Source: a virus
Direction: 5' to 3' (one strand)
Length of the DNA stretch: 41,799 nt
IMG/VR virus record: IMGVR_UViG_3300031566_000123
Below the pieces are notes generated by a model. The model had not been told where the DNA came from. It made no database searches and saw only the letters and a program-made list of their open reading frames with translations. The position numbers and the translations under genes were made by a program. This document shows, in pieces, positions 9,997-38,496 of the stretch (positions are counted from its first letter, which is position 1; each line of letters starts with the position of its first letter).

Positions 9997-10323
9997 ATGG
10001 AAAAGGTAAACGGGGTAGATACCATAAGTGATAATATAATACTTGAGCCACCAGAGGAAATTAAACTAAGTTTTGATACCATGAAAAAGGCACAGAGGTT
10101 GCAAGATTTACTGCTCCCAAGGTGGGCTGCGTTTGTACCGTATTGTGCAAAGTGTAAGGTGCCGCTGATTTGGATTTTAGGTGATGAAAGAATGTTGTTT
10201 GAATGTCCGAGTTGTGCGGTGGTTTGGGTGAAGGATAGTAACTGGAACGAAAACTTAGGTAAGGCATTGGGCAAGAGTAAGGAGAAAAATGGAGTTCGCA
10301 GCAAAGTTTCCAAAGACGGATGA
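9997..10323 (+). CDS. Zinc-ribbon protein (108 aa)
   Basis: GGAAAGGAGTAAC precedes the ATG at 9997. CAKC...CPSC pairs. Confidence 0.6.
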   Translation: MEKVNGVDTISDNIILEPPEEIKLSFDTMKKAQRLQDLLLPRWAAFVPYCAKCKVPLIWILGDERMLFECPSCAVVWVKDSNWNENLGKALGKSKEKNGVRSKVSKDG

Positions 10324-11089
10324 AGGTTGGATAGACTTCCCCAGTGATGTTGGGTATAGGAAAAGCATATTCCCTGAGGACATCGCACACCCAGCTAGAG
10401 CTAACCTACACATGGTAGAAGCTATTGTGGAGTATGTATCCCAGCCAGAGGAGACAGTTATGGATATCATGGCTGGTGCTGGTAGTATTGCTATTGCTGC
10501 GGTGATGGGTAGAAAGGTAGTCTGTATAGAAATTGAGAAAATATACCAAGATACGCTTGCTGTGGTTAAAAACCATTTAAGTGGGGAGGTTCAGGAAAAC
10601 CTAACTTTGCTGTTCGGCGATTGCAGGGACTTTTTGCCGTTCCCAGTAAACCATATCATATTCAGTCCACCTTATGCACGGATATTGAAAACCAAGCAGG
10701 GTGCAAAGCAGGATAGTACCAAGCAACTGGCAGGGGTTAGCAAACATTCGGAGTTTGGGAGTTGGAGTCCAGAGTATTCTACCAACCCACGGAATGTTGG
10801 TAACCTAAACAAGTTTTTGTATAACCAAACTATGGAGAGGATATACAAACTTTGTTATGATAGTTTGTTTTCGGGTGGTACAATGACGGTGATATTGAAG
10901 GATTATATTCATAAGGGTAAGCGGGTGTATTTGTCCGATTGGTTAACACGGACTTGTATCAAAATGGGATTTGAGATTACTGGTTGGCATAAGCGCAAGG
11001 CATTGGGTACTGGGTTTTTGAAGCTATGGCGGAGTAGAGGGTGCGCTACTGTATCGGATGAAGATATTATTATCTTTAATAAGGAGTAA
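10289..11089 (+). CDS. DNA methyltransferase (amino-MTase, SPPY type; N4-C or N6-A), 266 aa
   Basis: Motif I VMDIMAGAGSIAIAA and motif IV IIFSPPYA. TAAGGAGAAAA precedes the ATG. Confidence 0.85.
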   Translation: MEFAAKFPKTDEGWIDFPSDVGYRKSIFPEDIAHPARANLHMVEAIVEYVSQPEETVMDIMAGAGSIAIAAVMGRKVVCIEIEKIYQDTLAVVKNHLSGEVQENLTLLFGDCRDFLPFPVNHIIFSPPYARILKTKQGAKQDSTKQLAGVSKHSEFGSWSPEYSTNPRNVGNLNKFLYNQTMERIYKLCYDSLFSGGTMTVILKDYIHKGKRVYLSDWLTRTCIKMGFEITGWHKRKALGTGFLKLWRSRGCATVSDEDIIIFNKE

Positions 11090-11788: not shown

Positions 11789-12244
11789 ATGCAAAAATTG
11801 GATACTTTCCAACTCAAGGTTAATTATAACCCAGAGGTGTTGGAGGTGGTAGGTCCAGAAGGTGGTGAAGGTGTAACAGATGGCAAGATAGGTAATACCA
11901 CAGTACCTGTCAGCATGTGGGCATTTTCACCAAAAGGTGTTCCAGGAACGCTGTTTATATTAGGTAATGTACCAGGAGTTACTGGAGTATTAGGAAGTGG
12001 ATTCCTAGCACATATACACTTTAAGGTAGTGGAAGGTTCTAGTGGGACAACATACATTACCTTCAGCGATGGACATTTGTGGGATAACGGCAATCCACCA
12101 AGTGAAATTGATGTGGAAGAATGGATAGGAGACAATGTGTTTATAATGAGCGCCCAAATAATTACTATGGAGATTAGTACACCTATTGAGGTACAACAGG
12201 GAGAGGAATTTGCCGCTGATGTGGTAATTACTGAGAGTAAATAG
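11789..12244 (+). CDS. Cohesin-domain-like protein, apparently an off-register repeat fragment (151 aa)
   Basis: FQLKVNYNPEVLEVV...GVLGSGFLAHIHFKVVEGSSGTTYITF resembles the middle and C-terminal strands of a cohesin domain. The tail ISTPIEVQQGEEFAADVVI resembles the start of a second domain. Strong Shine-Dalgarno site. Confidence 0.45.
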   Translation: MQKLDTFQLKVNYNPEVLEVVGPEGGEGVTDGKIGNTTVPVSMWAFSPKGVPGTLFILGNVPGVTGVLGSGFLAHIHFKVVEGSSGTTYITFSDGHLWDNGNPPSEIDVEEWIGDNVFIMSAQIITMEISTPIEVQQGEEFAADVVITESK

Positions 12245-13902
12245 TGTATTCCGCCTATGACCCACAACTAGGTTTCTACTACTACGGTGAGGAGGAACCT
12301 AGAAGTGGGATGTACCGTGAATATATTGGCTGCCATCCTAAACTTATCACAGTAGATACCGAGACTATATCACTCAAGGAAAGGGTTGTCATTGGGGTTG
12401 GCATCGCTGTCAATCCTCGTATATCATTTTATTTTCCACTGTTCCCAGAACCATGTTCCATGGTACCATGGGAACTATTGCGTAATCCCTATGTTACAAA
12501 GATATTCCACAATGCGCCGTTTGATTTGGTTTGTATGCAGGAATGGAATATGGATAATACTAATATCCTGGATACTAATATCATCGCACACCTGTTGAAT
12601 GTGAAGCCATCCAGGTTGATTGATGTGGTTTCCGCTATGGCAGCAGAGGGAGGTAGGCTCCCAGAAGTGCACCAAATTTCGGAGTATATTGGTAAAGAAA
12701 CTAAACGGACTACGCTGGATGTTCCTACCGAAGTGATGGCTAAAAAATGTTGCCAGGATGCTATCGCTACCTACCAAGTGTATGAGCATTTTTCACCTAG
12801 GGTGGATATGGAGTATCTCAAGGTGGAGATGGAAGTAATATCTATATTAACGGAGATGTCGTTTCGTGGGATTAAGTTGGACCAGGAGGCTAGGGGTGAG
12901 CTGGAGAGTAGTTTGGAACAGGAGGTGGAGTATTATCTTACCATGGCTGAAGGTGAAGGGTTTAGTCCAAGCTCGCCGCAGCAGGTTGGGTATGTATTAG
13001 CAAAGCGTGGTGCTTATTCGGTATTCAAACGGCTGCCGTGGACAAACAGCAGGCGGACGCAGTTAAGTACCAATGTTGAGGTATTAAATAAGATGGACGA
13101 CCCAATGGCAGCGTTGGTGTTGGATTATCGTGGTAGGTCTAAGTTGTTGAATACCTATATCAAGCCATGGAAGGGTGAAAAGCGTGCTTATACTAGGTTT
13201 CATCTGGATGGTATCACTGGTAGGCCAAGTTCCACAGAGAGGAATATGCAGAACATACCAAAAGGAGCGCCTAGAGGTATATTTATTCCTGAAAATACCA
13301 TGTTTACAGATGTTGACTTCCAACAAATTGAGCTGCGGGTGTTAGCAGAAATATCTGGTGATAGGGAGATGCAAACTATTCTCAACGACCCTAAGGGTGA
13401 TATACACCAAGCAACTGCGGATTTTTTGAATATACCTAGATACCCTTCAAAGTCGGTAAATTTTGCCATGATATACGGCGCTACGGATGAGACCATCATG
13501 GAGACGGCGAAAATTAGGAGTCTGGATAGAGCTAGGAGATTGAAGGAAGCATGGTTTGACCGCTACCGTGAGGCTGGAGATTGGATACAATTACAACAAA
13601 GACATGGGTTGGAAGACCCATATGTAACCACGCTGTATGGTAGAAAGATTATGCTACCAACATTGGATGAGGAGAGTGAAGGTGCAATACAGCGTAAAGC
13701 GGTGAACTATCCTATCCAAGCTAGTGCTGCGGAGATTGTAAAGCGTGGTATGATTAAGTGCAAGGATTTGCTCATGTTGCTGCAAATCCATGACGAGATT
13801 TTGATTGATGGGTTTGTGCCAAAAGAGCGGTTTGAGGTATTGGAACATATCTCACCTCTATGGACACCAGTTAGTGTTAAATACTTGCAGAGGTGGGAGT
13901 GA
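12244..13902 (+). CDS. Family A DNA polymerase with 3'-5' exonuclease domain (552 aa; the GTG start is uncertain)
   Basis: Exo I ITVDTETISL and Exo II FHNAPFDL. Pol motif A DVDFQQIELRVLA, motif B KSVNFAMIYG, motif C LQIHDEILI. Confidence 0.93.
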   Translation: MYSAYDPQLGFYYYGEEEPRSGMYREYIGCHPKLITVDTETISLKERVVIGVGIAVNPRISFYFPLFPEPCSMVPWELLRNPYVTKIFHNAPFDLVCMQEWNMDNTNILDTNIIAHLLNVKPSRLIDVVSAMAAEGGRLPEVHQISEYIGKETKRTTLDVPTEVMAKKCCQDAIATYQVYEHFSPRVDMEYLKVEMEVISILTEMSFRGIKLDQEARGELESSLEQEVEYYLTMAEGEGFSPSSPQQVGYVLAKRGAYSVFKRLPWTNSRRTQLSTNVEVLNKMDDPMAALVLDYRGRSKLLNTYIKPWKGEKRAYTRFHLDGITGRPSSTERNMQNIPKGAPRGIFIPENTMFTDVDFQQIELRVLAEISGDREMQTILNDPKGDIHQATADFLNIPRYPSKSVNFAMIYGATDETIMETAKIRSLDRARRLKEAWFDRYREAGDWIQLQQRHGLEDPYVTTLYGRKIMLPTLDEESEGAIQRKAVNYPIQASAAEIVKRGMIKCKDLLMLLQIHDEILIDGFVPKERFEVLEHISPLWTPVSVKYLQRWE

Positions 13903-23573: not shown

Positions 23574-23602
23574 AGATTAACATAATACTTTGAACTTGTC
23601 AA
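23574..23602 (-). promoter_or_regulatory. Internal late promoter TTGACA-N17-(TGT)TAATCT ahead of the scaffold and capsid genes
   Basis: Minus strand: TTGACA at 23602-23597 (contains the TGA stop of the 1898-aa gene), 17-nt spacer ending in TGT, TAATCT at 23579-23574. Confidence 0.45.
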
Positions 23603-26600
23603 GTAGCACGGCCAGCAGATGTCAAATTATCGTATATTAGCTGCGCTTCTGGCGTAAGTAAAGTGCTGGTCACATTCCAGTATAGCAGTTGCGCATCTAG
23701 TGTAGGGAGTGTCATACGGAGCTTTTTTCTGGCATTGGTTGTCATAGTGCGGTATTGGGAGATAAGTTTCAATCCGTTTGGTCTGGTTATCTCCTGTATC
23801 TCCGCTGCTCTGGTTGGGTCAATGTCTTGGATTGCGTAGTATTCATCAATGAGGTCTTGCTCCTCTGGGGTGAACATCTCTTTTTTAATCACATCGGAGA
23901 CATTCCAATACGGTACTAAGTAATTTTCCACTGCCTCTCGGTAGAGGGTTCTACCAGGAGTCTCATTGTGGCGGAGATAGGTATGCCAATCGGATTTAAG
24001 TTCTGGTGGGAGCATTTTCTCAATCGCATCCTGGGTTGCGAAGAATGTTCCCCAGTCTAGGTACGGGGTGTTTGTTACAGGGTCTATTTTCTCCTTCACG
24101 GTGAGCTGGAACCATTCGTTTAGCATTTCGTCAAATGCACCCATGTTGAGATTGATACCTTTCTCCGCATAGTAGAGCGCTCGTTCCTCAGCGGTGAGTG
24201 GTATCCAACTGAATTTATTTTTAGTTACTGGGTTTGCTTCCCATTCTCCAGTTGTGTGGTTGAATGTATCACCATGTTCCTCATGTATGTAGTCTGCGTT
24301 ATCCTTGCTTATGCCACGCATTTTATCCACATATTCGGCTTTACTTATCCATCCACCTTCACCTCTGAACGCCTGTCCTTCTATGCGGAGCATTTCTATA
24401 TTATTAGCCTCACGGTGTCGCCTAACCATGCCCCAGAATTCTGATTGGATGAGGTTATCCTCAATCTCGCTGGATGGGCGCAAGGATGCGGTGACTCTAG
24501 GTTTAATCCACCGCATGTATTCCTCCGCTTCTTGGATTTGCATTATGTCTAATTGGGATAAGCCAGGACAAACATCACCGACGGTATAACCGTGCATCCT
24601 GAGCCATTTTTGGGTTTTAACATTCACTCCAGTAATTTCCTCAATATACTCCCCCCACCATTCATAGGCTCGGATGCGGTCCTCATGTCGCATACGGAAT
24701 ACGCCAGCATGGGACATCCATGGTGACATAAGGGATACACGACCAACAGCATTATCCCAAAGTCCTTGCTCTTCTGCGGTAAGGGTTTCATTGCGCTCCA
24801 TTTTCTCCCAGATGGACACACCAGTAATCCCCCGCTGGATTTGGTCTGTGGTAGCTTTATCAGACACTTCGGTCATACGCATGTAATCCTGAAAATAATC
24901 AGGGAATAACACACCATAGAGTTTCTTGGCAACATCGGATTCGGGGTGAGCTGCTATAAATAAATCCAGCGGAGTTTTAACAATGGTCGGTAAAATTTGT
25001 CCAGTTTGTGGCTTTCTGCCGCCGTAGGATGTTAGGAGTAATTCCCAAAATACATTCGGAAAGAACCCCCACCGTTTAACATAATCCATGGTTTCTACAA
25101 ACTCGGGAAACATTTGGTCATAGTATTCTGGGTAGTCTCTGCGGACTAGGCTGGACATACCACCTTTATACACCGTGCCTCTGGTAAAGTTTACATCCAG
25201 CGAGGTACCAGGTATGTGGACATAACCAAAATCGGAATTATCCATAAACTTACCCCATGTATTCATGATTAGTGGATGGGTTGCAAAGTTTCTTGGTAGC
25301 CAGAACCATCGTTGGGATTCGTAGGTCCAGTAAGGAAATATATGTGTCATAAATTTATCTAGGATGTTGAGATTGGTATAGTCGGTAAATTCTTGGTGGT
25401 AGGAGAGCATAGTCTTATCCATTGCTTCTTGTTTTATCCGCCACCATTCATCAGTACCTTCTCTAGCAAGTTGTCCTTTAACTGGTTGGTAGATGTCCAG
25501 TTTGCGGAGATTGTCAGCTACCTCATCACAGTAACCTTGTATGTGCATTGCAGCTTCCTTATTCACGGAATGGTTAATACGGATTGATTCCAAATCTCTG
25601 GATAGGTTATCCATTTCGGCGTATTTGCGGGTAAGGATATCATGGACAGCAGGGTCAGAGCGTACTCCATATATTAGTTTGTCATATACCTCTCCAATGG
25701 CATCATCGGTGAATCCTAGTGCTTGACGGGTAGTTCCAGCAGCGGAAGCCATTTCAATAGATTGTCTCCTAACCAATGCTACAAAATACTCCTTACGCAT
25801 CAAGGATGCGGAGTTCATCATAGCATAGGATATTTGGTCACCTGTGGAGTGGAATAGTTTAGCAATATCAGCGGGGGTTAGTGCTCTCCCAGTTGCGTCA
25901 ATTTTTGCAGTACGGACTGATACTCCCATCACCCTGCCCAGCCCTCTAGCCGCAGAGATTTGGTCAGCAAGGAGTTCAGCGTCTATGGTGAAATGCTTTT
26001 CCCAAATTTCGGTAAGTTCTTTAATCCATTCAGGAGAGTTTGGTCTAACCTTGCGAGCTATGAGTTCCTCGGATTTTTTCATAGCAACTTTGCGGGTGTC
26101 TTGGATTTTGAGTACCCGTGCAACCGCAACATCCATGCAATTATCTAATTGTTCCACTTCAGTTTTGGTCAACAGGTCGCCAAGGTTAGCTTTGATATGG
26201 TCGGAAAGTCTTTTGGATTGTTTTTCACACTGGTTGAGGAATGGCATGATATTGGAGTACGCCTCCGCCCATGCGGTTTCCCTTGCAGCTGCGGTTGGTA
26301 ATGTAGATATTCGGTGTTGTGCACCTGTGAATAGGGAGGAGATAGTTTCAGGAGATTCCATGGATATATCTTGGAGAGCATGTGCATAACCCATAATCTG
26401 TTCTTTGGTTTCTATTTTGTTGGTGGAGGCTAGTAGGTCATCTACCAAATGCTGTAATCTGTCAGCTTTTATTCTCGGTGCATTGATAAGCCTATCTGCT
26501 AGGATATCTTGGGATTTAACCATGAAAGCAGGTAGGTCATCCCAAAGCTCACCCGTATAGGCGCCTTTGAGGAACACATCCCAAACCTCGGTTAGTTCCC

Positions 26601-29295
26601 CATATTTCATCACCGCTTTATTAACCTGGCCCATTTTTATGTTCCTTGCGGTGAACGCAGAAGGTACACTTTGGACTGCGGATGGTCCAACTAGGGAGGC
26701 ATCATGTACCATCTGGTGAATTCCTTTACCAATATCATCACCAATACCAATCGTGGGAGTAAACTTTGGAATGGATTTCTCAATGCCAACCATTGTTTTT
26801 GGAGCAAGGTCAGTGAGGTTATCCTGCCACACGGTTATACAATACCCATTTCGCTGGATGCCACCAGAAAGCTGGGAAGCATTTATTGGGAACAGCGCAG
26901 CATTGTGCACCTTGTTTCCGATTTTTGGTATCCACCCACCTGTTAGTGCTTTTTCCACCATTTCTACGCCGAATTCCCTCTCTGTTGTGGTAAGTGCTAC
27001 GGCGTGGGTCATTTCACCAATGCCTACTGGTTGTAAAGTTCCTCCAACCAATGCTTTACCAATATCACGGTAACCATACCTTGTAATGTTCAATGAACGG
27101 GCTAGTTCTGGGTCAACTCCGGACAACCCAATGAACATTACGTTAGCTCTAGCAGGAGTCACTCTACCATATACACCGCCACCACGACCACAGTAGGTAC
27201 GCAACACCTCTTCTACGTAGTTGTACGGGAAGTAGTTCCCAGTTAATAGGAATGCCCTAGCAAAAGGCATAACAAGGTGTTTTTCTATCCCCTCCTGCCA
27301 AATTCTACGGTAGATAGGTTCAATGGTATTTACCATTCCTGCCATAAATCCATGTCGCTGCTGCCACAACCACCATTTTTCATATCCCTCAGATAGGATA
27401 ATCTCCCTGCCATGTGCTTTCAAGGTTTGCAGGGATTCTAGTGGAGCTAGTTTTGCCATCTTTATACCTTCTGCAACGGTACGGTCATAGGTTGAGGTTA
27501 TCAAACCTTTAGCAATTTTCATATTGGTTTCATCATCTGCTATGTTAAATACATTCCTACAGAGGTCTTGCGCAGCAGCATCTAGGTTGCGTGAAATTCT
27601 TCCTGGTGCTGGAGACATTGAACCTGGTGTAATGGTACTAGCAACGATACTCTCCAAGTCCTGTATCATACCAGGAGTAATATCACTAGGGTCAAAGGTT
27701 TTCCCAAATGCTCTTCCCCATTCAATGAACTCGGTGTGGGTTAGCTGTTTACGAGCAATATAGGCTCTACCCAGCATTGCAGTTTCGTCCACCGCTGCTG
27801 GGTTGTCAACCGCATACCTAATGGCTTTTAGGTTAGCTTCCACAAAATCATCTGCTGGTATGTTTTCCAAAGCTTTGCCAGCAATCCTTTCTTGTGGCAT
27901 TTTAACCATGTCGGTTATTTGCCTACCAAAATAATCCGCTTTTTGTCCAGTGGTTTTGGGTATTCGCATAAGGAGTTTGGTTTTGACAAACCCAAATGGT
28001 GCTTCACAAAAACGGATGAACCCTCGTTCAAAGGCTCCAGATGCACCAAATATCCTGCCTAGGACTGGAATCCCCCTAGTAGCTTTTGCTCCCTGCATCA
28101 ACCAACCAAACCCAAGTACATTCACAGGGTCGGTGAATATCTCCAACCCCATCTTCGCCCATTCATTGCTTTCAAGGTCTTCCCATGCTTTTCCCATAGC
28201 AGTCCAATGGTTCATACCAGCTTCACGGTTTTTGTTGTAATCATTTCGCAATAAATCACCAGTCATATCTACTGCTTCCCTCAAAAGTTCTATCTCGTTA
28301 TCAGGATAAAACTGTGCAAACATGGAGTGTTGGAAATAGAATGGAAAACCATACATATGGTCTGCGGTAAATTGTGCTATCCACCCAGCTCTAGGTTGGT
28401 CCCAGTAGGTTTGGTATAGTTGTAATACATCCATCGCTGCGAGTGCTGGTTGGGAAGCAACAAATTTGAGTTTCCCCCAAAAGGTTCGCTCTGGGAGTTC
28501 TACCTCTCCACCAGCCTTATATTCCGCAATTTGTTGTCTACCAAGTTCAAATTCCTCAATCAAGGTTCCAAATTTACTATTAGCCGCTTCCGCTGCTGCT
28601 GCAAGTTCCTCATCCGTGTAACCTTCATCTTTTAGGTAATTAAGTAACTCTGGACCACCCAAACCTGGTGGTAACTCTGGCGGTGGCATGATTTGTCTCA
28701 ACCATTTGGACATTTCATCCACGGTTGTTAGATGCACGCCTTTGAAGGTTGGCTTGGTTGGTGCTGGAGTGGTTACAAACCATTTTGCCAATTCCGCCGC
28801 ATAGGCTTCATCGGTGGGAGCTACCTCACCAACTCCTAGAATAGTATTTACATAGTTTCTGGCTTTGGCAAGGTCCTCAGGTGAGCTATTAGGTTCTGGT
28901 GGATGTTGACGGATGTAATCCTCATAACTATTGATATTGGCAGCTTTGAGGTCCATGGGTGAGGCGGAGTATAGGTAGCCAAACCACACATTGCGGGTAT
29001 AATCTGATAATTGGATATCATACTCAGCTTTTGCTTTGGTAATATCCTCCACACGCCTAGTTGCTGGAGATGGAACCTGTAGTGGTAATTTTTCAACCTG
29101 AACCTGTGGAGCAAACGCCGTTAGTATATCCTGGCATAGACCATAAGATACCCCATATTTTAGCAAACTACTCCATGCCTTTTCCCATGTGGAAAGTGGT
29201 TCACCAAGGTCCTGTAGCTTCGCCTCACTCTCCCTGAGCAGTTTTTCAATGGAGGTTATTTCATCCTGCCATTTGGTTAACTCATTCCCGTTCAT
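23599..29295 (-). CDS. Giant 1898-aa protein of unknown function (candidate internal virion or ejection protein)
   Basis: Uninterrupted ORF. GGAGGTATGTAAT precedes the ATG. Lies between the portal and scaffold genes. I recognised no catalytic motif. Confidence 0.85.
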   Translation of the reverse strand: MNGNELTKWQDEITSIEKLLRESEAKLQDLGEPLSTWEKAWSSLLKYGVSYGLCQDILTAFAPQVQVEKLPLQVPSPATRRVEDITKAKAEYDIQLSDYTRNVWFGYLYSASPMDLKAANINSYEDYIRQHPPEPNSSPEDLAKARNYVNTILGVGEVAPTDEAYAAELAKWFVTTPAPTKPTFKGVHLTTVDEMSKWLRQIMPPPELPPGLGGPELLNYLKDEGYTDEELAAAAEAANSKFGTLIEEFELGRQQIAEYKAGGEVELPERTFWGKLKFVASQPALAAMDVLQLYQTYWDQPRAGWIAQFTADHMYGFPFYFQHSMFAQFYPDNEIELLREAVDMTGDLLRNDYNKNREAGMNHWTAMGKAWEDLESNEWAKMGLEIFTDPVNVLGFGWLMQGAKATRGIPVLGRIFGASGAFERGFIRFCEAPFGFVKTKLLMRIPKTTGQKADYFGRQITDMVKMPQERIAGKALENIPADDFVEANLKAIRYAVDNPAAVDETAMLGRAYIARKQLTHTEFIEWGRAFGKTFDPSDITPGMIQDLESIVASTITPGSMSPAPGRISRNLDAAAQDLCRNVFNIADDETNMKIAKGLITSTYDRTVAEGIKMAKLAPLESLQTLKAHGREIILSEGYEKWWLWQQRHGFMAGMVNTIEPIYRRIWQEGIEKHLVMPFARAFLLTGNYFPYNYVEEVLRTYCGRGGGVYGRVTPARANVMFIGLSGVDPELARSLNITRYGYRDIGKALVGGTLQPVGIGEMTHAVALTTTEREFGVEMVEKALTGGWIPKIGNKVHNAALFPINASQLSGGIQRNGYCITVWQDNLTDLAPKTMVGIEKSIPKFTPTIGIGDDIGKGIHQMVHDASLVGPSAVQSVPSAFTARNIKMGQVNKAVMKYGELTEVWDVFLKGAYTGELWDDLPAFMVKSQDILADRLINAPRIKADRLQHLVDDLLASTNKIETKEQIMGYAHALQDISMESPETISSLFTGAQHRISTLPTAAARETAWAEAYSNIMPFLNQCEKQSKRLSDHIKANLGDLLTKTEVEQLDNCMDVAVARVLKIQDTRKVAMKKSEELIARKVRPNSPEWIKELTEIWEKHFTIDAELLADQISAARGLGRVMGVSVRTAKIDATGRALTPADIAKLFHSTGDQISYAMMNSASLMRKEYFVALVRRQSIEMASAAGTTRQALGFTDDAIGEVYDKLIYGVRSDPAVHDILTRKYAEMDNLSRDLESIRINHSVNKEAAMHIQGYCDEVADNLRKLDIYQPVKGQLAREGTDEWWRIKQEAMDKTMLSYHQEFTDYTNLNILDKFMTHIFPYWTYESQRWFWLPRNFATHPLIMNTWGKFMDNSDFGYVHIPGTSLDVNFTRGTVYKGGMSSLVRRDYPEYYDQMFPEFVETMDYVKRWGFFPNVFWELLLTSYGGRKPQTGQILPTIVKTPLDLFIAAHPESDVAKKLYGVLFPDYFQDYMRMTEVSDKATTDQIQRGITGVSIWEKMERNETLTAEEQGLWDNAVGRVSLMSPWMSHAGVFRMRHEDRIRAYEWWGEYIEEITGVNVKTQKWLRMHGYTVGDVCPGLSQLDIMQIQEAEEYMRWIKPRVTASLRPSSEIEDNLIQSEFWGMVRRHREANNIEMLRIEGQAFRGEGGWISKAEYVDKMRGISKDNADYIHEEHGDTFNHTTGEWEANPVTKNKFSWIPLTAEERALYYAEKGINLNMGAFDEMLNEWFQLTVKEKIDPVTNTPYLDWGTFFATQDAIEKMLPPELKSDWHTYLRHNETPGRTLYREAVENYLVPYWNVSDVIKKEMFTPEEQDLIDEYYAIQDIDPTRAAEIQEITRPNGLKLISQYRTMTTNARKKLRMTLPTLDAQLLYWNVTSTLLTPEAQLIYDNLTSAGRAT

Positions 29296-30976: not shown

Positions 30977-31189
30977 TCACCTCCAAAGTAGTTTAATTAG
31001 GTAGATAATACCAACCCATGTAGCCACGCCAAACGCTCTACCTACAAGGTAGTAGTGGAATTCCTCTATCATTGGGTTGTGATAGTCTATTGGCATCGGG
31101 AACCTGCTGTGCCAAGGACAGATAACCTCGCACCAACCAATGACAAAGGCGTGCCACTCATCCCAGTTATTCATAAATTCCCATTTCAT
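30977..31189 (-). CDS. Small Trp-rich protein with a hydrophobic C-terminus (70 aa)
   Basis: GGAGGTGGCAAACC precedes the ATG. Confidence 0.5.
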   Translation of the reverse strand: MKWEFMNNWDEWHAFVIGWCEVICPWHSRFPMPIDYHNPMIEEFHYYLVGRAFGVATWVGIIYLIKLLWR

Positions 31190-31302
31190 GGTTTGCCACC
31201 TCCAATTTTACACTTGTGGTTGGTTATCTCCGCACCACTAGCATGGAGGCATTTGTAACATAGGTAAAGTGCTTCACCAGTAACTAACCTCATTTTATTC
31301 AC
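31186..31302 (-). CDS. Mini-protein (35-38 aa) with CxxC...HxC
   Basis: GAGAGG lies 6 nt before the GTG at 31302 (alternative ATG at 31293). The stop overlaps the next ATG (ATGA). Below the ORF-track cutoff. Confidence 0.35.
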   Translation of the reverse strand: MNKMRLVTGEALYLCYKCLHASGAEITNHKCKIGGGKP

Positions 31303-31340
31303 ATAAGTCCTCTCTCCGCAGTTGCTACATATTCCTATTG

Positions 31341-32870
31341 TTACCATTTGAAGCCTGATGTTCCGACAAATCCTCGTTCTACTGGTCTAGTATCCCTACA
31401 AACACAAGCTATTGCCACAGCATCGTGGATGTCATCCGCACCGAGTGAAACTACCTTATCACCAACTTGGCGGATATTCCTACATTCGGATACGAATTGG
31501 ATATCATGTACCACCATCTTGTGCAGTAATCGGGAGAGGGTGTTTAGCATGAACGGTTTGGTTTTTGGTGTGGTTAACCAACCTAACTCGGAACTTTCTC
31601 TCTCGGAAATCACATCACGGCGGTAATAGTTATTACCCCAATCCCTAAGCAGGGGTGCTAGTGCTAACCCATGTGCATTCGCTTCCCAGGTTATCAATGC
31701 ATCATTGTAGTACCTTGCAAGCTCCCTTGCTTTATCAGCGGTTACTTCGGGTGTCCATAAACCCGCTGCTCTAGCACAGTATTTAGGAACCTCACCAGAA
31801 AAACACATTACTAAAATTGCAGATTGGGTAATTTTAGCCTGTCCTGGGTCAATGGATATTATGTACCATTCCCTTTCCTCTGGTGGATACCAAATCTCCG
31901 CACTAAGTTGGTGGATGGTTGCTGGATAGCAATCCTTTGCTAGTTCATCCATCACGGTAGGGTCATAAAACATATCACCAGCGGAAAGGAAGCAGGATAC
32001 ATCATCTTCGGGGTATTCTTGGGTAAATAGTTTCCTCAACTCACCCGTTCTGCGTAGACTCTCCATTTCTTTAATTTTGTACCTACGCCAGCGGATTTGG
32101 TCAAATGAGAGATTGTGGTTGGTTACCAACTTCTCCTCATCAGAAGACAGTATTGGAATGTTTAATTCCTCGGTACATTTGGAATGGTTAATGGGCATGG
32201 TGTAGTCTGGGTGCATAAACCATGAATAAAAATGCGGCGTAAAGGTGGACTTACCTTCTTTAGCAAGCTGGTACATATCACAGAAATCATTGTCCTCACC
32301 GTTTGGTGTGGAAAATATGTCCACCGTACCATTTATTGGAACACGCTGGAGTGCTGGTACTAATATACGGTCGGTGGCACTTGGTTCCCAGAAAGCAAAT
32401 TCATCGCAGAGGAGGTGGTGGATAATCTCCCCTCTACCTGCAACATAACTCCGAGCGGAACTAATATACATGGAGCTGTGTATGGATGGAAAGGTTTTCT
32501 CATAGGAACTATTGTGGTGCATCTTTGGAAAACCTGGTATTTTGATAGAGCTTAGGACATTGTAGAAAAATTGCACCTTGTCCAGCAGGCGTTGGGTTAT
32601 GAATTCCTCAAAAGCGATGAGAATGGTGTTCGTACCAGGCGTGGTTATGGTTTCAACAAACCTTTTCACCAAGCGTTCACTGGAAAATCCAACTTGTGCT
32701 GGCTTTACCCAAATATCCCTCCCAGTTTCGGTTTGCTGAACATCCTGTTGTATTGGGTTTAGTATGAATGGTACTCGGTTGGAGTTTTTGTCCTCAATAA
32801 CCAACAGGGTTTCAATAAACTTCCGCTTGTCCCTCAGGAGTTCGGCAAATGTTTCAAGTTGGGTAGGCAT
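31341..32870 (-). CDS. terL: Terminase large subunit (509 aa)
   Basis: VKPAQVGFSS (RQxGxS-type P-loop region), Walker B LLCDEFAFW, nuclease-domain ISIDPG. AGGAGATAATTCCA precedes the ATG. Confidence 0.88.
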   Translation of the reverse strand: MPTQLETFAELLRDKRKFIETLLVIEDKNSNRVPFILNPIQQDVQQTETGRDIWVKPAQVGFSSERLVKRFVETITTPGTNTILIAFEEFITQRLLDKVQFFYNVLSSIKIPGFPKMHHNSSYEKTFPSIHSSMYISSARSYVAGRGEIIHHLLCDEFAFWEPSATDRILVPALQRVPINGTVDIFSTPNGEDNDFCDMYQLAKEGKSTFTPHFYSWFMHPDYTMPINHSKCTEELNIPILSSDEEKLVTNHNLSFDQIRWRRYKIKEMESLRRTGELRKLFTQEYPEDDVSCFLSAGDMFYDPTVMDELAKDCYPATIHQLSAEIWYPPEEREWYIISIDPGQAKITQSAILVMCFSGEVPKYCARAAGLWTPEVTADKARELARYYNDALITWEANAHGLALAPLLRDWGNNYYRRDVISERESSELGWLTTPKTKPFMLNTLSRLLHKMVVHDIQFVSECRNIRQVGDKVVSLGADDIHDAVAIACVCRDTRPVERGFVGTSGFKW

Positions 32871-32875
32871 TGGAA

Positions 32876-33076
32876 TTATCTCCTACGCCGTCCTGCAGCA
32901 GCCATCTTCTGGAACTTGGATTTACCATATTTTTTGCGCCCTATCCATGCTGCTAACGCTTTCGGACTGCGGACTTTGCGAGATTTACCAGCTTTGGTTG
33001 TACCCTTTTTTGCTCTGAGTTTTCTGGTTAGTCTGGTAAATCTACCACCACCTCCAACTCTCATGCTTTTTGCCAT
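32876..33076 (-). CDS. Hyper-basic small protein (66 aa, very rich in Lys and Arg)
   Basis: GGAAGGAGGAAATA precedes the ATG. Sequence MAKSMRVGGGGRFTRLTRKLRAKKG...AAGRRRR. Confidence 0.65.
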   Translation of the reverse strand: MAKSMRVGGGGRFTRLTRKLRAKKGTTKAGKSRKVRSPKALAAWIGRKKYGKSKFQKMAAAGRRRR

Positions 33077-33225
33077 TATTTCCTCCTTCCAGTACCTTTG
33101 CCTCTGCCGCTACCTCTACCGTACCCTACGCCGCCTTTGGTACATGCACTTGTGTTGCGGTTTCTACGACCACCACTTGGTGTGCCTTTGCCTTTCCCTG
33201 CACCTCGTTTTGCTCCGTATGCCAT
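33076..33225 (-). CDS. Gly/Arg/Lys-rich mini-protein (49 aa, RGG-like), below the ORF-track cutoff
   Basis: AAAGGAGACAACAC precedes the ATG at 33225. TAATG overlap with the next gene. My translation: MAYGAKRGAGKGKGTPSGGRRNRNTSACTKGGVGYGRGSGRGKGTGRRK. Confidence 0.55.
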   Translation of the reverse strand: MAYGAKRGAGKGKGTPSGGRRNRNTSACTKGGVGYGRGSGRGKGTGRRK

Positions 33226-33237
33226 GTGTTGTCTCCT

Positions 33238-33789
33238 TTAACCTGTTATCATTCCAAAAGAATGGGCAAAGCCTGCTGGTGGTGTATAGTCAACCTCAAC
33301 ATAGACTTGGGTGCAATGAGAATAACAACTGATTGGTGGTCTACCGCCAGCAAGATAGCCTACTTCCAAGTATAACAAAACTTGCAAGGAATCAATATCA
33401 TCCCAAGTCCAAGCCACCTCACTATTAGGATTATCTGCCCAAGTTTCAGATTTCGTAACATAAGATTCGCTGCTAATGTCCATTTCGCTTGAATAATAAG
33501 GGGTGGAGTCGGAGTATACTCCAACTTTTACATAGCAGTCTTTTAGTGCAAGGTTAGTAACCCTTACTACGGCATAGACTTTTACACTGTTTATAGTCCC
33601 AGATTCCGTTGTATGATTAGGAAGCCCGAAACGTCCCTCTACGTCATCTTGTGACCCAGCGTGCAAATAGGTGGAGTCCTCATCCGAACTTTCTTCATCT
33701 ATGTCCTCATGTGCGCTTTCCCCTGTGTTGGGATATAAAAGAAAGGCGGAGAATTCTGTTGAGTTTGGTCTTAAAATTAGTGCGCTCAT
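33238..33789 (-). CDS. Hypothetical late protein with an acidic N-terminal tract (183 aa)
   Basis: The ATG at 33789 overlaps the upstream TGA (ATGA). Acidic tract HEDIDEESSDED. Confidence 0.55.
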   Translation of the reverse strand: MSALILRPNSTEFSAFLLYPNTGESAHEDIDEESSDEDSTYLHAGSQDDVEGRFGLPNHTTESGTINSVKVYAVVRVTNLALKDCYVKVGVYSDSTPYYSSEMDISSESYVTKSETWADNPNSEVAWTWDDIDSLQVLLYLEVGYLAGGRPPISCYSHCTQVYVEVDYTPPAGFAHSFGMITG

Positions 33790-34541
33790 TTCCACACCTG
33801 CCAAGTCATCGGGTTATAGGGAGTATAAACGCCATTATCTGTTAGGACTGGTTGAACCAATGTGTTAAATTGGGGAGGAGCACCTTCGGTAAGGTCTACA
33901 TAAACCCAGTCAAACTTCCCGTGCTTTTTAATCTCCTCAAAGGCATCACCGTGAATTATCTGGATAGGAGTATCAAAGTAACCAGTAATCTGTTCACCCA
34001 GTAAATGGATAACCCTATCATCTATCTCACAAACCACGACATCTTTTGCCTTGCCTAAATGATTTAGATATAGCAGGATTAAACCCAACCCAAGCCCGCC
34101 GATAAAAACTCTTGCGTTATCAGGACATTCTTGAGCAGAGGTAAGCATAGAAAAATGCTCTTCGATACTGGTATTCATAACTGCGGGTAACTTACTGTCT
34201 ATTATCAGTTCCCTGCCGTCATGGGTACCCTTGAGTTCTACCCCGTTATACTTTTTCTGTTCTCCCAACATAGCAAGGTCTTGCCTATCTCTATACACAG
34301 CAAACTCTGAAATCGCATCTTCGGCTTCTACCAAGCAGTATTTATTACTTTTAACCCAGAAGCTAGCCAGTGTAAAACCTAGCTTCTCCAGGGTTGCTAC
34401 TAGCTTATTTAGCAGTGGCGTATGCTCTTCAGATATGCCCTTATACCACCCACCAGCGTGTAGCTGTGTATGAGCTTTCCTGTAAGCGTCAACAGCCTTC
34501 CTACCAGCCAATACCTTATGTTTATCAATCAAACTAGACAT
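33786..34541 (-). CDS. Class I SAM-dependent (Rossmann) transferase, spermidine-synthase-like (251 aa)
   Basis: VFIGGLGLG (motif I), VVVCEID (acidic end of strand 2), IIHGDAF, WVYVDL. The preceding LIIDSKLPAVMNTSIEEHFSML resembles the LxLDGxxQ...DExxYHEML segment of spermidine synthases. Confidence 0.55.
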   Translation of the reverse strand: MSSLIDKHKVLAGRKAVDAYRKAHTQLHAGGWYKGISEEHTPLLNKLVATLEKLGFTLASFWVKSNKYCLVEAEDAISEFAVYRDRQDLAMLGEQKKYNGVELKGTHDGRELIIDSKLPAVMNTSIEEHFSMLTSAQECPDNARVFIGGLGLGLILLYLNHLGKAKDVVVCEIDDRVIHLLGEQITGYFDTPIQIIHGDAFEEIKKHGKFDWVYVDLTEGAPPQFNTLVQPVLTDNGVYTPYNPMTWQVWK

Positions 34542-34550
34542 GTTACTCCT

Positions 34551-35060
34551 CTATGTCTTCGTTACCTTCAAGCTAATCAGCACCCTCTCACAGGTGGTGA
34601 TTGAATCCACATTGAACCTCAGCGTATCTCCCGCAGCAATCGCCGTTGTCCAACTGGTCAATGTCGTATCCTGTGCCTTTATCGCACTGGAAAGTGTAGG
34701 CGGAGTTGAGGAGGTTATACTGTTAGCATCCTCTGGAGGATAATCCGCATAAGCCTGTTTCCAAATATCCACCACGATGCTTCCTGATTGGTCTGCTAAG
34801 GTAGTAACCGCTGTTATGGTGCAGGCGAAGGGTATCTCTAAATCACCCTTGATGCCTGTGGTGATGACTGAGCCACCGCCGTCTATAATGAACTCAATCC
34901 CTGCTAAATTAGTATGGTGAACGGTTTTGCTTGCAGCATGGTCATACGCCCAATTAGATGAAATTGGAGCAGTGGTTTCCCCATTCACTGGGGTATCATC
35001 TATATCCGCCTTCAAGCAAACATTATCCCGATAAGCAATGAGTTTCCATGTTATAGCCAT
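34551..35060 (-). CDS. Fibre-like protein sharing the MAITWK.IAY.D N-terminus (169 aa)
   Basis: Its N-terminus is nearly identical to that of 35242-35889. TAATG overlap upstream. Confidence 0.5.
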   Translation of the reverse strand: MAITWKLIAYRDNVCLKADIDDTPVNGETTAPISSNWAYDHAASKTVHHTNLAGIEFIIDGGGSVITTGIKGDLEIPFACTITAVTTLADQSGSIVVDIWKQAYADYPPEDANSITSSTPPTLSSAIKAQDTTLTSWTTAIAAGDTLRFNVDSITTCERVLISLKVTKT

Positions 35061-35241: not shown

Positions 35242-35889
35242 CTATACCGTTGCCGTGCAAACATGTAAGGTTAGTTCAGCGGTAGCCCAACAAAGCTGTC
35301 CAAGTGCCACATTCGCAGCAGGTAGCGCAGCCTCATTAGCTACGGTCATGACCACAAGGTCAGTGGCTTCTTGTAGGTCAAAGTCCACAGCTGCATCAGG
35401 AACCCCAATATCATCAAGAGCCATAGAAGCAGCTACCTCAGCTGGAGTTCTGCCCTCAAGACCAAGAGTTGTAAACCTTGCCAGTTCTGTATCTGCGGGT
35501 TGATTAGTAGTGCCATCAACCGTAACTAGATGGTTGTCTGTAATCGCATGGTTGATAGCATGAATGTGGTCAGCCCTAGCAAAAGTATGAGCTACACCCA
35601 CACCAGCAGCCACTACTGCGGATATCTCAGCACCAGCAGCAGAGTCCAATGGGTCGCTTCCATCCTGCGGGTCATGTGAATCCTTGTGCGCCGCTGGAGC
35701 TGCTGGAGCTGCCCACTTTATCCCCGTAGCCTCACCAGAGTCGGCGGTCAATACATGGTCATTACTCCCAATGCTCAGGATTAGTGGCGTATCGTCTGCC
35801 GATGCGGAGATTAGGTCTCCCTTTGCAGCCATAAAGGCTTCGGTAATTACATCATCCTCGTAAGCTATCTTCTTCCAAGTTATAGCCAT
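35242..35889 (-). CDS. Tail fibre or collar-like protein (215 aa)
   Basis: KGDLISASADDTPLILSIGSNDHVLTADSGEATGIKWA matches a motif I associate with phage fibre N-termini. GAAGGAGGCTAAAAT precedes the ATG. Confidence 0.5.
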   Translation of the reverse strand: MAITWKKIAYEDDVITEAFMAAKGDLISASADDTPLILSIGSNDHVLTADSGEATGIKWAAPAAPAAHKDSHDPQDGSDPLDSAAGAEISAVVAAGVGVAHTFARADHIHAINHAITDNHLVTVDGTTNQPADTELARFTTLGLEGRTPAEVAASMALDDIGVPDAAVDFDLQEATDLVVMTVANEAALPAANVALGQLCWATAELTLHVCTATV

Positions 35890-37600: not shown

Positions 37601-37738
37601 ATTGCCTCCTTGCTGGCTATCACGCCCAACCTCTTGGTAATCTTCTTTTATACCTCATCCCCCGCCTACCAACTCTCATAACCTGCGCTTTCATGAGGTT
37701 ATGCCTACCCGCAGCACGCTGTCTGAGAGTTGCTCTCC

Positions 37739-37951
37739 TCACTTTTTACCTTCATGCTGTTTTACTAGCATATCCATTATACCTTCCAACTTTGCTACGT
37801 GGCGGGAAATGCCGTCTACCTTTGCAACCAACCCATCGTTAATAGTTTCATCCAGGTGTTGGACTTTTTGACTAACTTTACCATATACATAAACCCAGGT
37901 TATAATGTTTATTAGGACAAATACCCCAGCTCCGATTACATATTCCGACAC
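37739..37951 (-). CDS. Single-TM membrane protein with a coiled-coil tail (70 aa, GTG start)
   Basis: GGAGGTATTTA precedes the GTG. N-terminal segment VIGAGVFVLINIITWVYVY. Confidence 0.5.
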   Translation of the reverse strand: MSEYVIGAGVFVLINIITWVYVYGKVSQKVQHLDETINDGLVAKVDGISRHVAKLEGIMDMLVKQHEGKK

Positions 37952-38460
37952 TAAATACCTCCTCTGGTTATAATCATCTCCTCTTTCTCACGGCGGATTT
38001 CAAATACCATTTTGGTGAAATCAAACCCCGTTTGTGTTGCTTCTCCTACCAACTGCTGGATAATAGCATATTGTTGAGGAGTGTAGAAGGAACGGATTTT
38101 GAGTAGGTATTGGTTTTCCCTATCTGTTAATTTCTCAGGTTGTTGGACGCTTTTGGAGAGGACTTGGAAGTCCTTTTCCAACGCTAACCGAAAATTTCGG
38201 CTGAATTCAATGTTGAGGTACTCCGCACCGACATTTTTCTTGAGTTGCATGAGACCTGTGGTATCTAGGATGGCAAAGTCCTCATCCTCCTCACGCCACC
38301 TTTTGACGGTTCTTTCGGATATGCCAGCAAGGTTGATGGCTTCTCGGAGTGTAAAACCCACCGCACGGTAGCTTAGGTAGTTAGACTTCCTTGTGTTGTC
38401 TGGGTAGTAAGGAAGCATCCCTTCAACCGTCTGCGCCGTTTGTGGAACTAAATCATTCAT
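37951..38460 (-). CDS. HTH DNA-binding protein, first gene of the late operon (169 aa; possible small terminase or late regulator)
   Basis: YRAVGFTLREAINLAGISERTVKRWRE is an HTH-like segment. The ATG at 38460 lies 8 nt after the -10 box, so the mRNA looks leaderless. Confidence 0.5.
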   Translation of the reverse strand: MNDLVPQTAQTVEGMLPYYPDNTRKSNYLSYRAVGFTLREAINLAGISERTVKRWREEDEDFAILDTTGLMQLKKNVGAEYLNIEFSRNFRLALEKDFQVLSKSVQQPEKLTDRENQYLLKIRSFYTPQQYAIIQQLVGEATQTGFDFTKMVFEIRREKEEMIITRGGI

Positions 38461-38467
38461 TACAACC

Positions 38468-38496
38468 ACTATAACATACTCAGTATATTATGTCAA
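38468..38496 (-). promoter_or_regulatory. Leftward late-operon promoter TTGACA-N17-(TGT)TATAGT
   Basis: Minus strand: TTGACA at 38496-38491, a 17-nt spacer, TATAGT at 38473-38468, then 7 nt, then the ATG at 38460. Confidence 0.7.

Follow-up and report, generated by a model that had tools for sequence, protein, structure and literature searches.

Introduction

Phages are known to encode spermidine synthases, and the characterised viral enzymes adjoin a gene for S-adenosylmethionine decarboxylase (AdoMetDC, speD) (PMC9992855). In this enzyme family, the Asp of the glycine-rich cofactor loop GGGDGG forms a salt bridge with the amino group of decarboxylated S-adenosylmethionine (dcSAM) and is thought to repel the carboxylate of S-adenosylmethionine (SAM). 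Replacing this Asp in a plant (Datura) spermidine synthase (SPDS; D103I) abolished spermidine synthesis and conferred putrescine N-methyltransferase (PMT) activity from SAM, and the same Asp change in the T. maritima enzyme lowered kcat about 2000-fold; plant PMT is itself SAM-dependent and evolved from spermidine synthase (PMC3725402). Here, we analyze four consecutive genes directly upstream of the large terminase gene (terL) in the virus record IMGVR_UViG_3300031566_000123 from IMG/VR (41,799 nucleotides (nt); hereafter, the window means this whole stretch). In transcription order, they encode a 251-amino-acid (aa) enzyme resembling spermidine synthases, a 183-aa protein, and two mini-proteins of 49 and 66 aa. 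A sequence-only reading of this DNA had suggested that the four form one charge-neutralisation module for head filling.

Small basic proteins that condense viral DNA include protein J of Microviridae, VII and mu of adenoviruses, and P6.9 of baculoviruses. Protein J, like the 49-aa protein, is rich in Gly, Arg, and Lys. To our knowledge, tailed phages are generally thought to use polyamines and metal ions, not dedicated condensing proteins, and a literature search for phage protamine-like or DNA-condensing proteins returned none for tailed phages. P6.9 has been described as protamine-like (PMC12159748).

We find that the four genes are not one module. The explanation that we favor, at somewhat better than even odds for the whole of it, is that the interval is the junction of two independent units inside one long late operon: an accessory structural cassette that includes the enzyme, and a pair of polycationic mini-protein genes next to terL.

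Results and discussion

The four genes do not form one module

A comparison by blastn revealed a sharp end to the DNA that the window has in common with other phage contigs (coordinates of this and other features are in Table 1; fetched loci carry L numbers). A 13.7-kb IMG/VR contig (L005) was 96.5% identical to the window over positions 35002-33238, and L023 was 99.4% identical over 34467-33238. Both identities broke off precisely at the 183-aa stop codon, with nothing beyond. Judging from its translations, L005 encodes a 383-aa capsid-sized protein followed by head-closure-type genes, the cassette, tail-type genes, and a tape-measure-sized 852-aa protein; it looks like a different, siphovirus-type phage, and neither basic mini-ORFs (ORF, open reading frame) nor terL were found near its cassette.

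The relatives of the window terL gave the complementary picture. Four loci with 55-70% identical terL (L019, L020, L021, and L102) contained neither the enzyme nor the 183-aa gene, and in L020 unrelated 478-aa and 242-aa genes occupied their place. Among all fetched loci, copies of this phage excepted, homologues of the enzyme, the 49-aa protein, and the 66-aa protein never occurred in the same locus, and the enzyme was not accompanied by terL in any other locus. With identity ending at the 183-aa stop codon and terL relatives lacking the enzyme, the single charge-neutralisation module of the sequence-only reading is largely refuted by synteny. No relative was found by blastn or tblastn against 50,697 GenBank phage records with the region, the enzyme, the 183-aa protein, an adaptor-only protein (see below), or both mini-protein types; all relatives come from metagenomes of uncultured material.

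In the explanation that we favor, Unit A (about 35002-33238) would be an accessory structural cassette of the 169-aa protein encoded directly 5′ of the enzyme, the enzyme itself, and the 183-aa protein, and would move by recombination. Its core would be a coupled gene pair, i.e., a helical adaptor protein followed by a beta-sandwich protein resembling carbohydrate-binding modules (CBMs) and often extended by fibre-like regions. In this lineage, a spermidine-synthase-fold, SAM-binding transferase would have been inserted into the adaptor protein; it would use SAM to alkylate, most likely methylate, a nucleophile such as an amine. During virion assembly, its target or working partner would be the beta-sandwich fibre or adhesin protein, and it would make no polyamines. 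Unit B (33225-32876) would hold members of two separate conserved, phage-specific polycationic families that recur in packaging and head-morphogenesis clusters and whose products may bind nucleic acid and help to package or condense the genome. These findings mostly clarify the locus, and they bring to light two sizeable mini-protein families and an unusual adaptor-enzyme-fibre cassette.

Two families of polycationic mini-proteins

Both mini-proteins proved as polycationic as the sequence-only reading had described them, with a calculated isoelectric point (pI) of 12 and no acidic residue in either (14 Lys or Arg and 16 Gly in the 49-aa protein, 25 Lys or Arg in the 66-aa protein). Both also proved conserved. 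For the 66-aa protein, we recovered 227 homologues at E ≤ 0.1, mostly 50-75 aa long, and at least 443 confirmed IMG/VR loci. The family follows the pattern MAKSxRLGxGGRFxxLxxxL...PxALAAWIGRKKYGKKxFQKMAAAGRRR, to which the window copy adds a lineage-specific basic insert.

Despite a low-complexity look, the 49-aa protein had 37 representative homologous proteins at E ≤ 1e-3 in a full-library search (best 5.9e-8). These align in register on the pattern YGxKxGxGKGxGxPxGGRRNxNTxxCxxGGPGYGKGxGRGKGxGR, in which Gly positions are invariant and N22, N24, and C28 nearly so. A back-translated DNA version of this pattern retrieved 21 IMG/VR loci, of which 17 encode family members of 43-91 aa (E-values of 1e-13 to 1e-20); none of these loci held a gene of the 66-aa family. 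On several contigs, the 49-aa-family gene follows putative terL and portal-sized genes at a distance of a few genes. Codon usage gave no confirmation of the 49-aa reading frame, and all other contigs with the window ORF are 100% identical and so show no substitution pattern. An exact-sequence look-up did not return the 49-aa protein, but gene callers of the source assemblies did call the ORF, and the frame is confirmed by the conservation of the family. In one locus (L112), a 74-aa member (2-226) lies directly upstream of a gene (377-697) with an Acb2/Tad1-type hairpin domain, which belongs to the anti-CBASS/anti-Thoeris sponge family.

The 49-aa protein had no match in Pfam, PHROG, or NCBIfam. 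Neither did the 66-aa protein, for which the sequence-only reading had named a match to a known small terminase or DNA-binding family as grounds for abandoning its proposal. The two families thus remain unnamed while being widespread and phage-specific, and their genes are so small that they are easily missed in annotation. They resemble protein J, VII and mu, and P6.9 only in size and charge: all are very small, have a pI of about 12, lack acidic residues, and are encoded with structural or packaging genes. No sequence relationship to these viral DNA-condensing proteins was found, and the mini-protein families have fixed conserved motifs, not simple Arg runs.

We next consider how closely the 66-aa family is tied to packaging genes. 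Among 62 non-redundant IMG/VR loci, 42 were informative, i.e., had ≥2.2 kb of downstream DNA, and in 17 of these (17/62 overall) a recognisable terL started ≤700 nt downstream; in 3 more loci, terL lay just upstream. The association with terL that the sequence-only reading had drawn for the whole group stands for this family and fails for the enzyme and the 183-aa gene, which the terL relatives lack. Elsewhere, the 66-aa-family gene was located between terL and a portal-sized protein gene (L108), after a P22-type portal and an SU10-type major capsid protein (L104), and after a distal tail protein (L105). The terL of L108 (2606-4999) holds an intein with a LAGLIDADG endonuclease.

Three of the terL relatives (L019, L020, and L021) add a second pattern. 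Their slot before terL holds other basic ORFs of 61-69 aa, with 21-26 Lys or Arg and no acidic residue, for which BLAST detected no similarity to the 66-aa protein. Those of L019 and L021 are stop/start-coupled to terL, and that of L020 ends 15 nt before it. Two of the three carry the motif KWIAxAIKRPGAL...GRxGKQARLAxTLR, and the L019 ORF has a sub-threshold match (0.0019) to the fusellovirus VP2 DNA-binding capsid protein family (Fusello_VP2). Thus, this clade seems to retain a small polycation beside terL despite turnover of the sequence that provides it. Together with the proximity of the 66-aa family to terL across its range, we consider this pattern the best evidence that the mini-proteins function in packaging or DNA handling. 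It is reasonable to suppose such a packaging or DNA-related role for the 66-aa protein, since its family is strongly enriched beside terL, and for both mini-proteins a DNA-binding or packaging role is plausible and somewhat strengthened by these comparisons.

Several observations weigh against this role. About 60% of the 66-aa-family loci are not beside a recognised terL; in L102, the gene opens the late operon, 4 kb upstream of terL; and the L103 copy belongs to an element integrated into a genome of Armatimonadota. In addition, the family conserves hydrophobic or aromatic residues at F13, L16, L20, I45, and Y50, which suggests a small folded domain and not a protamine-like random polycation.

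Such positions, typical of a folded mini-domain, would also suit an alternative in which the 66-aa protein (perhaps with the 49-aa protein) is a regulator or terminase accessory factor that stays outside the capsid and is no protamine-like counter-ion; it could be a minimal factor for DNA recognition or terminase loading, or an RNA-binding translational coupler. The position upstream of terL is where small terminase genes are usually found, and members of the 66-aa family often sit there. The family is also found after terL, capsid genes, and tail genes, however, and a 172-aa helix-turn-helix (HTH) protein of the window is the more conventional small-terminase candidate; we regard the accessory-factor role as possible, albeit on the doubtful side. 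The narrower identification of the 66-aa protein as the small terminase itself was rejected for its size (family members mostly 50-75 aa, compared to about 90-200 aa for small terminases), its variable position, and the separate HTH candidate, and it has no terminase-family match.

A broader extension of the packaging role that we favor for the mini-proteins is that many tailed phages may encode polycationic mini-proteins that bind the genome and are co-packaged as protein counter-ions, similar to protamines or protein J. If the mini-proteins do bind and travel with the DNA, the view of charge neutralisation in tailed-phage heads would change, and co-packaged protein counter-ions would represent a strategy not recognised in Caudoviricetes.

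An aminopropyltransferase-like enzyme with an altered cofactor loop

The sequence-only reading had judged the 251-aa enzyme to resemble aminopropyltransferases more than DNA methyltransferases, and PDB, profile, and Foldseek rankings all bear this out. The top Pfam match was PF01564, the spermidine/spermine synthase family (E = 8.8e-5; 22.6 bits, 0.3 bits below the gathering score of 22.9). NCBIfam speE and PRK models reached 14-18 bits for cut-offs of 250-472, and 2 of 16 homologues had a precomputed PF01564 match. With phmmer, the ten best PDB matches were all spermidine or thermospermine synthases. A profile of the enzyme family, built from 16 full-length metagenomic homologues (40-68% identity), retrieved the P. 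horikoshii, K. lactis, and human spermidine synthases from the PDB at E-values of 1.7e-7 to 1.3e-6, across residues ~86-246. The AlphaFold model (predicted local distance difference test, pLDDT, 89.8) comprises a helical N-terminal part to residue ~92, four beta strands at 96-123, and a Rossmann core, and Foldseek comparison of this model to the PDB placed aminopropyltransferases at 33 of the top 37 ranks. Hundreds of methyltransferase structures also matched the model at E < 1e-3. The BFVD viral structure library returned only generic methyltransferases, while Pfam, NCBIfam, and PHROG scans included no DNA methylase family and gave weak PHROG “methyltransferase” matches. Overall, both its sequence and its fold place the enzyme nearer to aminopropyltransferases than to methyltransferases of DNA or rRNA.

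The extent of this likeness should be read with care: the Foldseek scores are modest (E about 1e-6, template-modelling (TM) score about 0.42), Trm5b, TrmR, and an rRNA m4(2)C synthase are interspersed among the fold matches, and the likeness to spermidine synthases, below the cut-off in Pfam, is real but modest.

We then examined the residues on which aminopropyl transfer depends. The enzyme shares with spermidine and spermine synthases (e.g., human SRM, 2o05; P. horikoshii, 2e5w; and T. maritima, 1inl) the N-terminal beta strands followed by a Rossmann domain, the Gly-rich loop, the acidic residue ending beta2 (cEID), a GD motif, and an Asp after beta4. These elements (GGLGLG loop; E172, ≥90% conserved in the 16-homologue alignment; GD; D216) constitute a class I SAM-dependent methyltransferase core. 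However, L152 sits in every alignment where the aminopropyltransferase GGGDGG has its dcSAM-binding Asp, and G149, L150, G151, and L152 are invariant in 16/16 homologues. D216, the counterpart of the first Asp of DSSDP, is nearly invariant across the family, whereas the second (E219 in the window enzyme) varies between E, D, R, S, G, and T. The chain stops about 35 residues past D216, while SPDS runs roughly 85 residues further, including putrescine-contacting positions; the C-terminal third of the fold is missing, with it the region of Y270 of the Arabidopsis enzyme AtSPDS1, and no equivalent of AtSPDS1 E236 could be aligned. An extra helical domain of ~80 residues is present at the N-terminus. 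No AdoMetDC (speD) family match was found in Pfam scans of the window ORFs of 90 aa or more, unlike the characterised viral spermidine synthases, which have AdoMetDC as a partner (PMC9992855). The check on catalytic Asp residues had a split outcome, with the first DSSDP Asp kept, the second not conserved, and the loop Asp replaced by Leu. The description of the protein as a polyamine-type enzyme is not supported, given the invariant Leu at the dcSAM determinant, the missing C-terminal pocket, and the lack of AdoMetDC among the scanned ORFs.

The enzyme is probably not a polyamine synthase but a SAM-using transferase. It combines an aminopropyltransferase fold with, most likely, the use of SAM, in parallel to the transition from SPDS to PMT, in which the cofactor-loop Asp likewise became hydrophobic (Ile in PMT, Leu here) (PMC3725402). 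Based on the Asp-to-Leu replacement and on the retained Glu, GD, and first Asp, we infer that it transfers an alkyl group, most likely methyl, to a nucleophile, for example an amine. By analogy, it would work more like PMT than like a spermidine synthase, as a member of neither family: there is no detectable specific relationship to PMT, the putrescine-binding residues are not conserved, and the enzyme is much shorter and carries a phage adaptor as a fusion. Architecturally, it is a new variant in the spermidine-synthase-fold branch of class I SAM-dependent transferases, in which the dcSAM determinant is lost and the catalytic domain is fused to an adaptor that is paired with a CBM-like fibre protein.

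Two alternatives concern the substrate. The enzyme could alkylate a small amine (putrescine, another polyamine, or an amine of a host envelope glycan), with the adaptor serving only for co-expression or localisation. The Asp-to-hydrophobic change is the one seen from SPDS to PMT, the first catalytic Asp is kept, and the partner protein looks like a carbohydrate-binding module. But the family does not conserve the second Asp, through which the distal amine of putrescine is bound, the region of Y270 is missing, E236 has no alignable equivalent, and other polyamine genes are not present; we consider such a substrate improbable. Alternatively, the enzyme could be a nucleic-acid methyltransferase, acting on DNA against restriction or on RNA, with an incidental position in a structural operon. 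Its Rossmann fold is of class I and its SAM motifs are intact, the Trm5b, TrmR, and m4(2)C rRNA synthase matches and the weak PHROG “methyltransferase” matches point the same way, and sister proteins with a Zn-ribbon (see below) are located among early-type genes. Yet aminopropyltransferases clearly outrank nucleic-acid methyltransferases in every search, the enzyme lacks a target-recognition domain, a separate N6/N4 DNA methylase is already encoded in the replication module of the phage, and fusion to a fibre-partnered adaptor would be hard to explain. We give this second alternative equally little credence.

A helical adaptor paired with a beta-sandwich protein

When the enzyme family alignment was searched against contigs from IMG/VR and JGI metagenomes, three kinds of matches emerged: full-length proteins, proteins matching only residues ~105-240, and many matching only residues ~4-90. 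The last kind corresponds to the N-terminal adaptor domain alone (modelled helices at 7-30, 40-53, and 58-77), represented by 51 distinct helical proteins, mostly 67-127 aa and some up to 167 aa with Cys-rich extensions. These have the motif GRKAVDAYRxAH...HTPLL and end in Trp-x-stop. The window enzyme is a fusion of this adaptor domain to a transferase domain.

The adaptor has a consistent neighbor. Among the fetched loci, 78 encode the adaptor domain and 69 a homologue of the 183-aa domain, and the 183-aa-type gene is the next gene in nearly every adaptor locus where the contig extends far enough. The two genes overlap or abut, e.g., as AAATGGCGATAA or ATGTGGCACTAATGG, which indicates translational coupling. 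Full-length enzymes also precede a 183-aa-type gene, in L001, L002, L004, L025, L029, L031, and L033. In one further protein (P0024; L194 301-1314), the adaptor is fused to a different domain of ~250 aa, and a 183-aa-type gene again follows (hmmsearch 2e-59). The stable unit is therefore an adaptor gene followed by a gene for a CBM-like protein, with optional enzyme-like inserts.

The sequence-only reading had noted the 183-aa protein only for an acidic tract; instead, it is modelled as a CBM-like beta-sandwich (pLDDT 92.9) and is the conserved partner of the enzyme. Foldseek matched the model to CBM16, CBM4, CBM22, Cry11 toxin chains, and ephrin-receptor ligand-binding domains (E about 1e-4, TM 0.4-0.5), as well as to CBM61, with the CBM matches at E 1e-4 to 1e-3. 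The profile of its family had no PDB match and the protein no Pfam match, and the sole library match across Pfam, PHROG, and NCBIfam was marginal (phrog_2448, function unknown, 4e-4). In the 62 homologues, the full proteins range from about 170 to 1112 aa, with the 183-aa domain at or near the N-terminus followed by fn3-like and repetitive fibre-like regions, as in the long forms of L001 (588 aa) and L002 (1112 aa). One locus (L004 192-1781) encodes a 529-aa protein with a 183-aa-type N-terminus and a Vint (Hint-like) domain.

The fusion of adaptor and transferase and the coupling of the genes suggest that the enzyme acts on or with the beta-sandwich protein, which the adaptor would bind. As a functional analogy only, this proposed role has a parallel in the flagellin lysine N-methylase FliB, which methylates a surface appendage protein: in either case, an exposed filament or fibre protein would be modified by a dedicated enzyme from a neighboring gene. 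The window enzyme differs from FliB as a Rossmann-fold protein without a Cys cluster. With the cassette, the phage could be adjusting a receptor-binding or decoration protein after translation.

Evidence weighing against this role of the cassette comes from each of its components. The CBM assignment of the 183-aa protein derives from a predicted model and fold matches at E about 1e-4. A conserved acceptor Lys was sought in the 183-aa family and none was found, with R7 alone conserved, at 97%; since, in addition, most adaptor proteins come without any enzyme, modification of the partner would be optional at best. The adaptor's own role may be limited to that of a chaperone or structural subunit. 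Finally, the relatives that match only in the Rossmann domain have a Zn-ribbon N-terminus (CxKCxxxW...CPxCNS) in place of the adaptor and sit among small same-strand, early-type genes. For these, we found neither the beta-sandwich partner nor another conserved neighbor, and the catalytic domain is hence not intrinsically tied to the beta-sandwich protein. The Zn-ribbon version of L056 has a C-terminal extension of ~230 aa that reads by eye as a second methyltransferase-like domain.

Further variants of the adaptor gave two leads. One adaptor protein (P0025) has a CX2CX2CC Cys cluster (precomputed PF03692), absent from the window enzyme, that resembles the Fe-S motif CX4CX3CC of FliB at the motif level only (PMC8598068); for the Cys-rich adaptor variants the link to FliB goes no further than this motif, as NCBIfam gave no FliB-type match. 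For the extra domain of P0024, an LplA identity was rejected: its sole PDB matches, around a KKIxG motif, were lipoate-protein ligases at a non-significant E = 0.34-0.42. With these variants in mind, the adaptor might recruit interchangeable amine-modifying modules (transferase, Cys-cluster, possibly LplA-like) to modify a CBM-like receptor-binding protein. Taken jointly, co-packaged mini-protein counter-ions and adaptor-recruited enzyme modules form a speculative extension that we think unlikely to hold as a whole.

A single head-filling module, in which the enzyme would make or modify polyamines or modify the peptides and charge would be neutralised at the motor, could cite the aminopropyltransferases among the enzyme's top sequence and fold matches, the tightly coupled single operon, the extreme basicity of the peptides with the 66-aa family enriched beside terL, and the existence of phage-encoded spermidine synthases (PMC9992855), but is highly improbable given the recombination boundary between the enzyme/183-aa genes and the peptides, the absence of either peptide family and of terL from every other fetched enzyme locus, the features that the enzyme lacks for aminopropyl transfer (dcSAM Asp replaced by Leu, second Asp unconserved, C-terminal pocket region missing, no AdoMetDC found), and its conserved CBM-like partner. 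The locus illustrates the limits of adjacency, with a polyamine-like enzyme and polycationic peptides beside terL joined only by recombination.

Locus layout and neighboring genes

The window represents a phage genome of ~42 kb (its proteins occur on contigs of up to 41,813 bp), in which the minus strand carries the genes at about 14-38 kb. The ORF scan and a phrog_2 match to terL confirmed the four ORFs before terL, all on the minus strand, and the strong Shine-Dalgarno sites and start/stop coupling reported by the sequence-only reading are all present. The Shine-Dalgarno sites of the interval are GAGGAG 6 nt 5′ of the enzyme ATG, AGGAG 7 nt 5′ of the ATG of the 49-aa gene, GGAGGA within the 3′ end of the 49-aa gene for the 66-aa gene, which starts in a TAATG stop/start overlap, and AGGAGA 8 nt 5′ of the terL ATG. 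An upstream TTG start of the 183-aa gene would lengthen its product to 188 aa. Since a strong promoter-like site (TTGACA-17-TATAGT, 11/12 matches) lies upstream, and no terminator-like site was found on the minus strand from this promoter on before one weak match inside terL, the interval is placed inside one long late operon.

Table 1 Coordinates of the features discussed, in the window unless a locus is named.
Feature	Position	Strand	Evidence or remark
Promoter-like site	38496-38468	-	TTGACA-17-TATAGT
172-aa HTH protein	37951-38469	-	first late gene
40-aa polycationic ORF	37620-37742	-	near late operon start
215-aa fibre-like protein	35242-35889	-	weak tail-fibre PHROG matches
169-aa virion-structural-like protein	34551-35060	-	gene directly 5′ of enzyme
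251-aa enzyme	33786-34541	-	ORF scan
N-terminal helical “adaptor” domain, aa 1 to ~80	34302-34541	-	motif GRKAVDAYRxAH...HTPLL
Putative spermidine-synthase-fold SAM-binding transferase domain, aa ~86-251	33786-34286	-	four beta strands and shortened Rossmann domain; PF01564, PDB profile, Foldseek
Gly-rich cofactor loop G148-G149-L150-G151-L152-G153	34083-34100	-	aligned to 2b2c, 2e5w, 2o05
D216 codon	33894-33896	-	aligned with first (catalytic) Asp of DSSDP/DSTDP
183-aa protein, predicted beta-sandwich (CBM-like or galactose-binding-like jelly roll)	33238-33789	-	ATG overlaps enzyme TGA (ATGA overlap); AlphaFold and Foldseek
Recombination boundary, end of DNA common to other phage contigs	33237-33238	.	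blastn
49-aa Gly/Arg/Lys-rich mini-protein	33076-33225	-	ORF scan
66-aa Lys/Arg-rich mini-protein	32876-33076	-	ORF scan
terL, 509 aa	31341-32870	-	phrog_2 at 7.9e-14
53-aa Cys-rich ORF	31186-31347	-	CSNCGERTY...CYKC; overlaps terL end
1898-aa protein	23599-29295	-	directly 3′ of portal-sized gene
Family A DNA polymerase	12244-13902		
Cohesin-domain protein	11789-12244	+	PF00963, 2.1e-7
N6/N4-type DNA methylase	10289-11089	+	PF01555, 2.6e-11
Relatives' pre-terL basic ORFs	L019 4966-5151; L021 9-218; L020 5791-5985		
Zn-ribbon sister family of GGLGLG Rossmann domain	L056 2134-3495; L046, L057, L058, L062, L068, L070, L074, L093, L100		contigs up to 90 kb

The 169-aa protein matched phrog_35197 (7.6e-39) and the “virion structural protein” family phrog_10330 (4.9e-21), and was 91% identical to its copy in L005 and 69% to that in L020; most of its gene, from 35002 on, falls within the DNA that the window has in common with L005. 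After terL, in transcription order, come two small ORFs, a portal-sized 558-aa protein, the 1898-aa protein, and a major head protein (phrog_212). A 53-aa zinc-ribbon-like ORF lies between terL and the portal-sized gene. The 1898-aa protein, with 27-38% identity to counterparts in L019, L020, and L021 and no match in Pfam and PHROG scans, could be a giant internal, ejection, or tail protein.

At its other end, the late operon opens with the 172-aa protein, which has a clear helix-turn-helix (…FTLREAINLAGISERTVKRWREED…) and is also the first late gene in L019, L020, and L102 (42-58% identity). Pfam and PDB searches gave no significant match for it, and it is a conventional small-terminase candidate, though 5 kb upstream of terL. 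Near the operon start lies a third tiny polycationic ORF (40 aa, 14 Lys or Arg, no acidic residues), with 59-72% identity in L019, L020, and L102.

On the replication side, the N6/N4-type DNA methylase gene lies beside the family A DNA polymerase gene. The same block encodes a cohesin-domain protein with two homologues (48-53% identity) in the structural module of L005 (L005 2207-2635 and 7917-8378), which suggests an Ig-like or cohesin-like decoration module common to the two phages. The 215-aa fibre-like protein of the window has a 472-aa version in L005 (L005 3477-4895), in which the module is duplicated; segments conserved between the two include HKDxHDPxDGSDPLD and HxHAINHxITDNHLVT.

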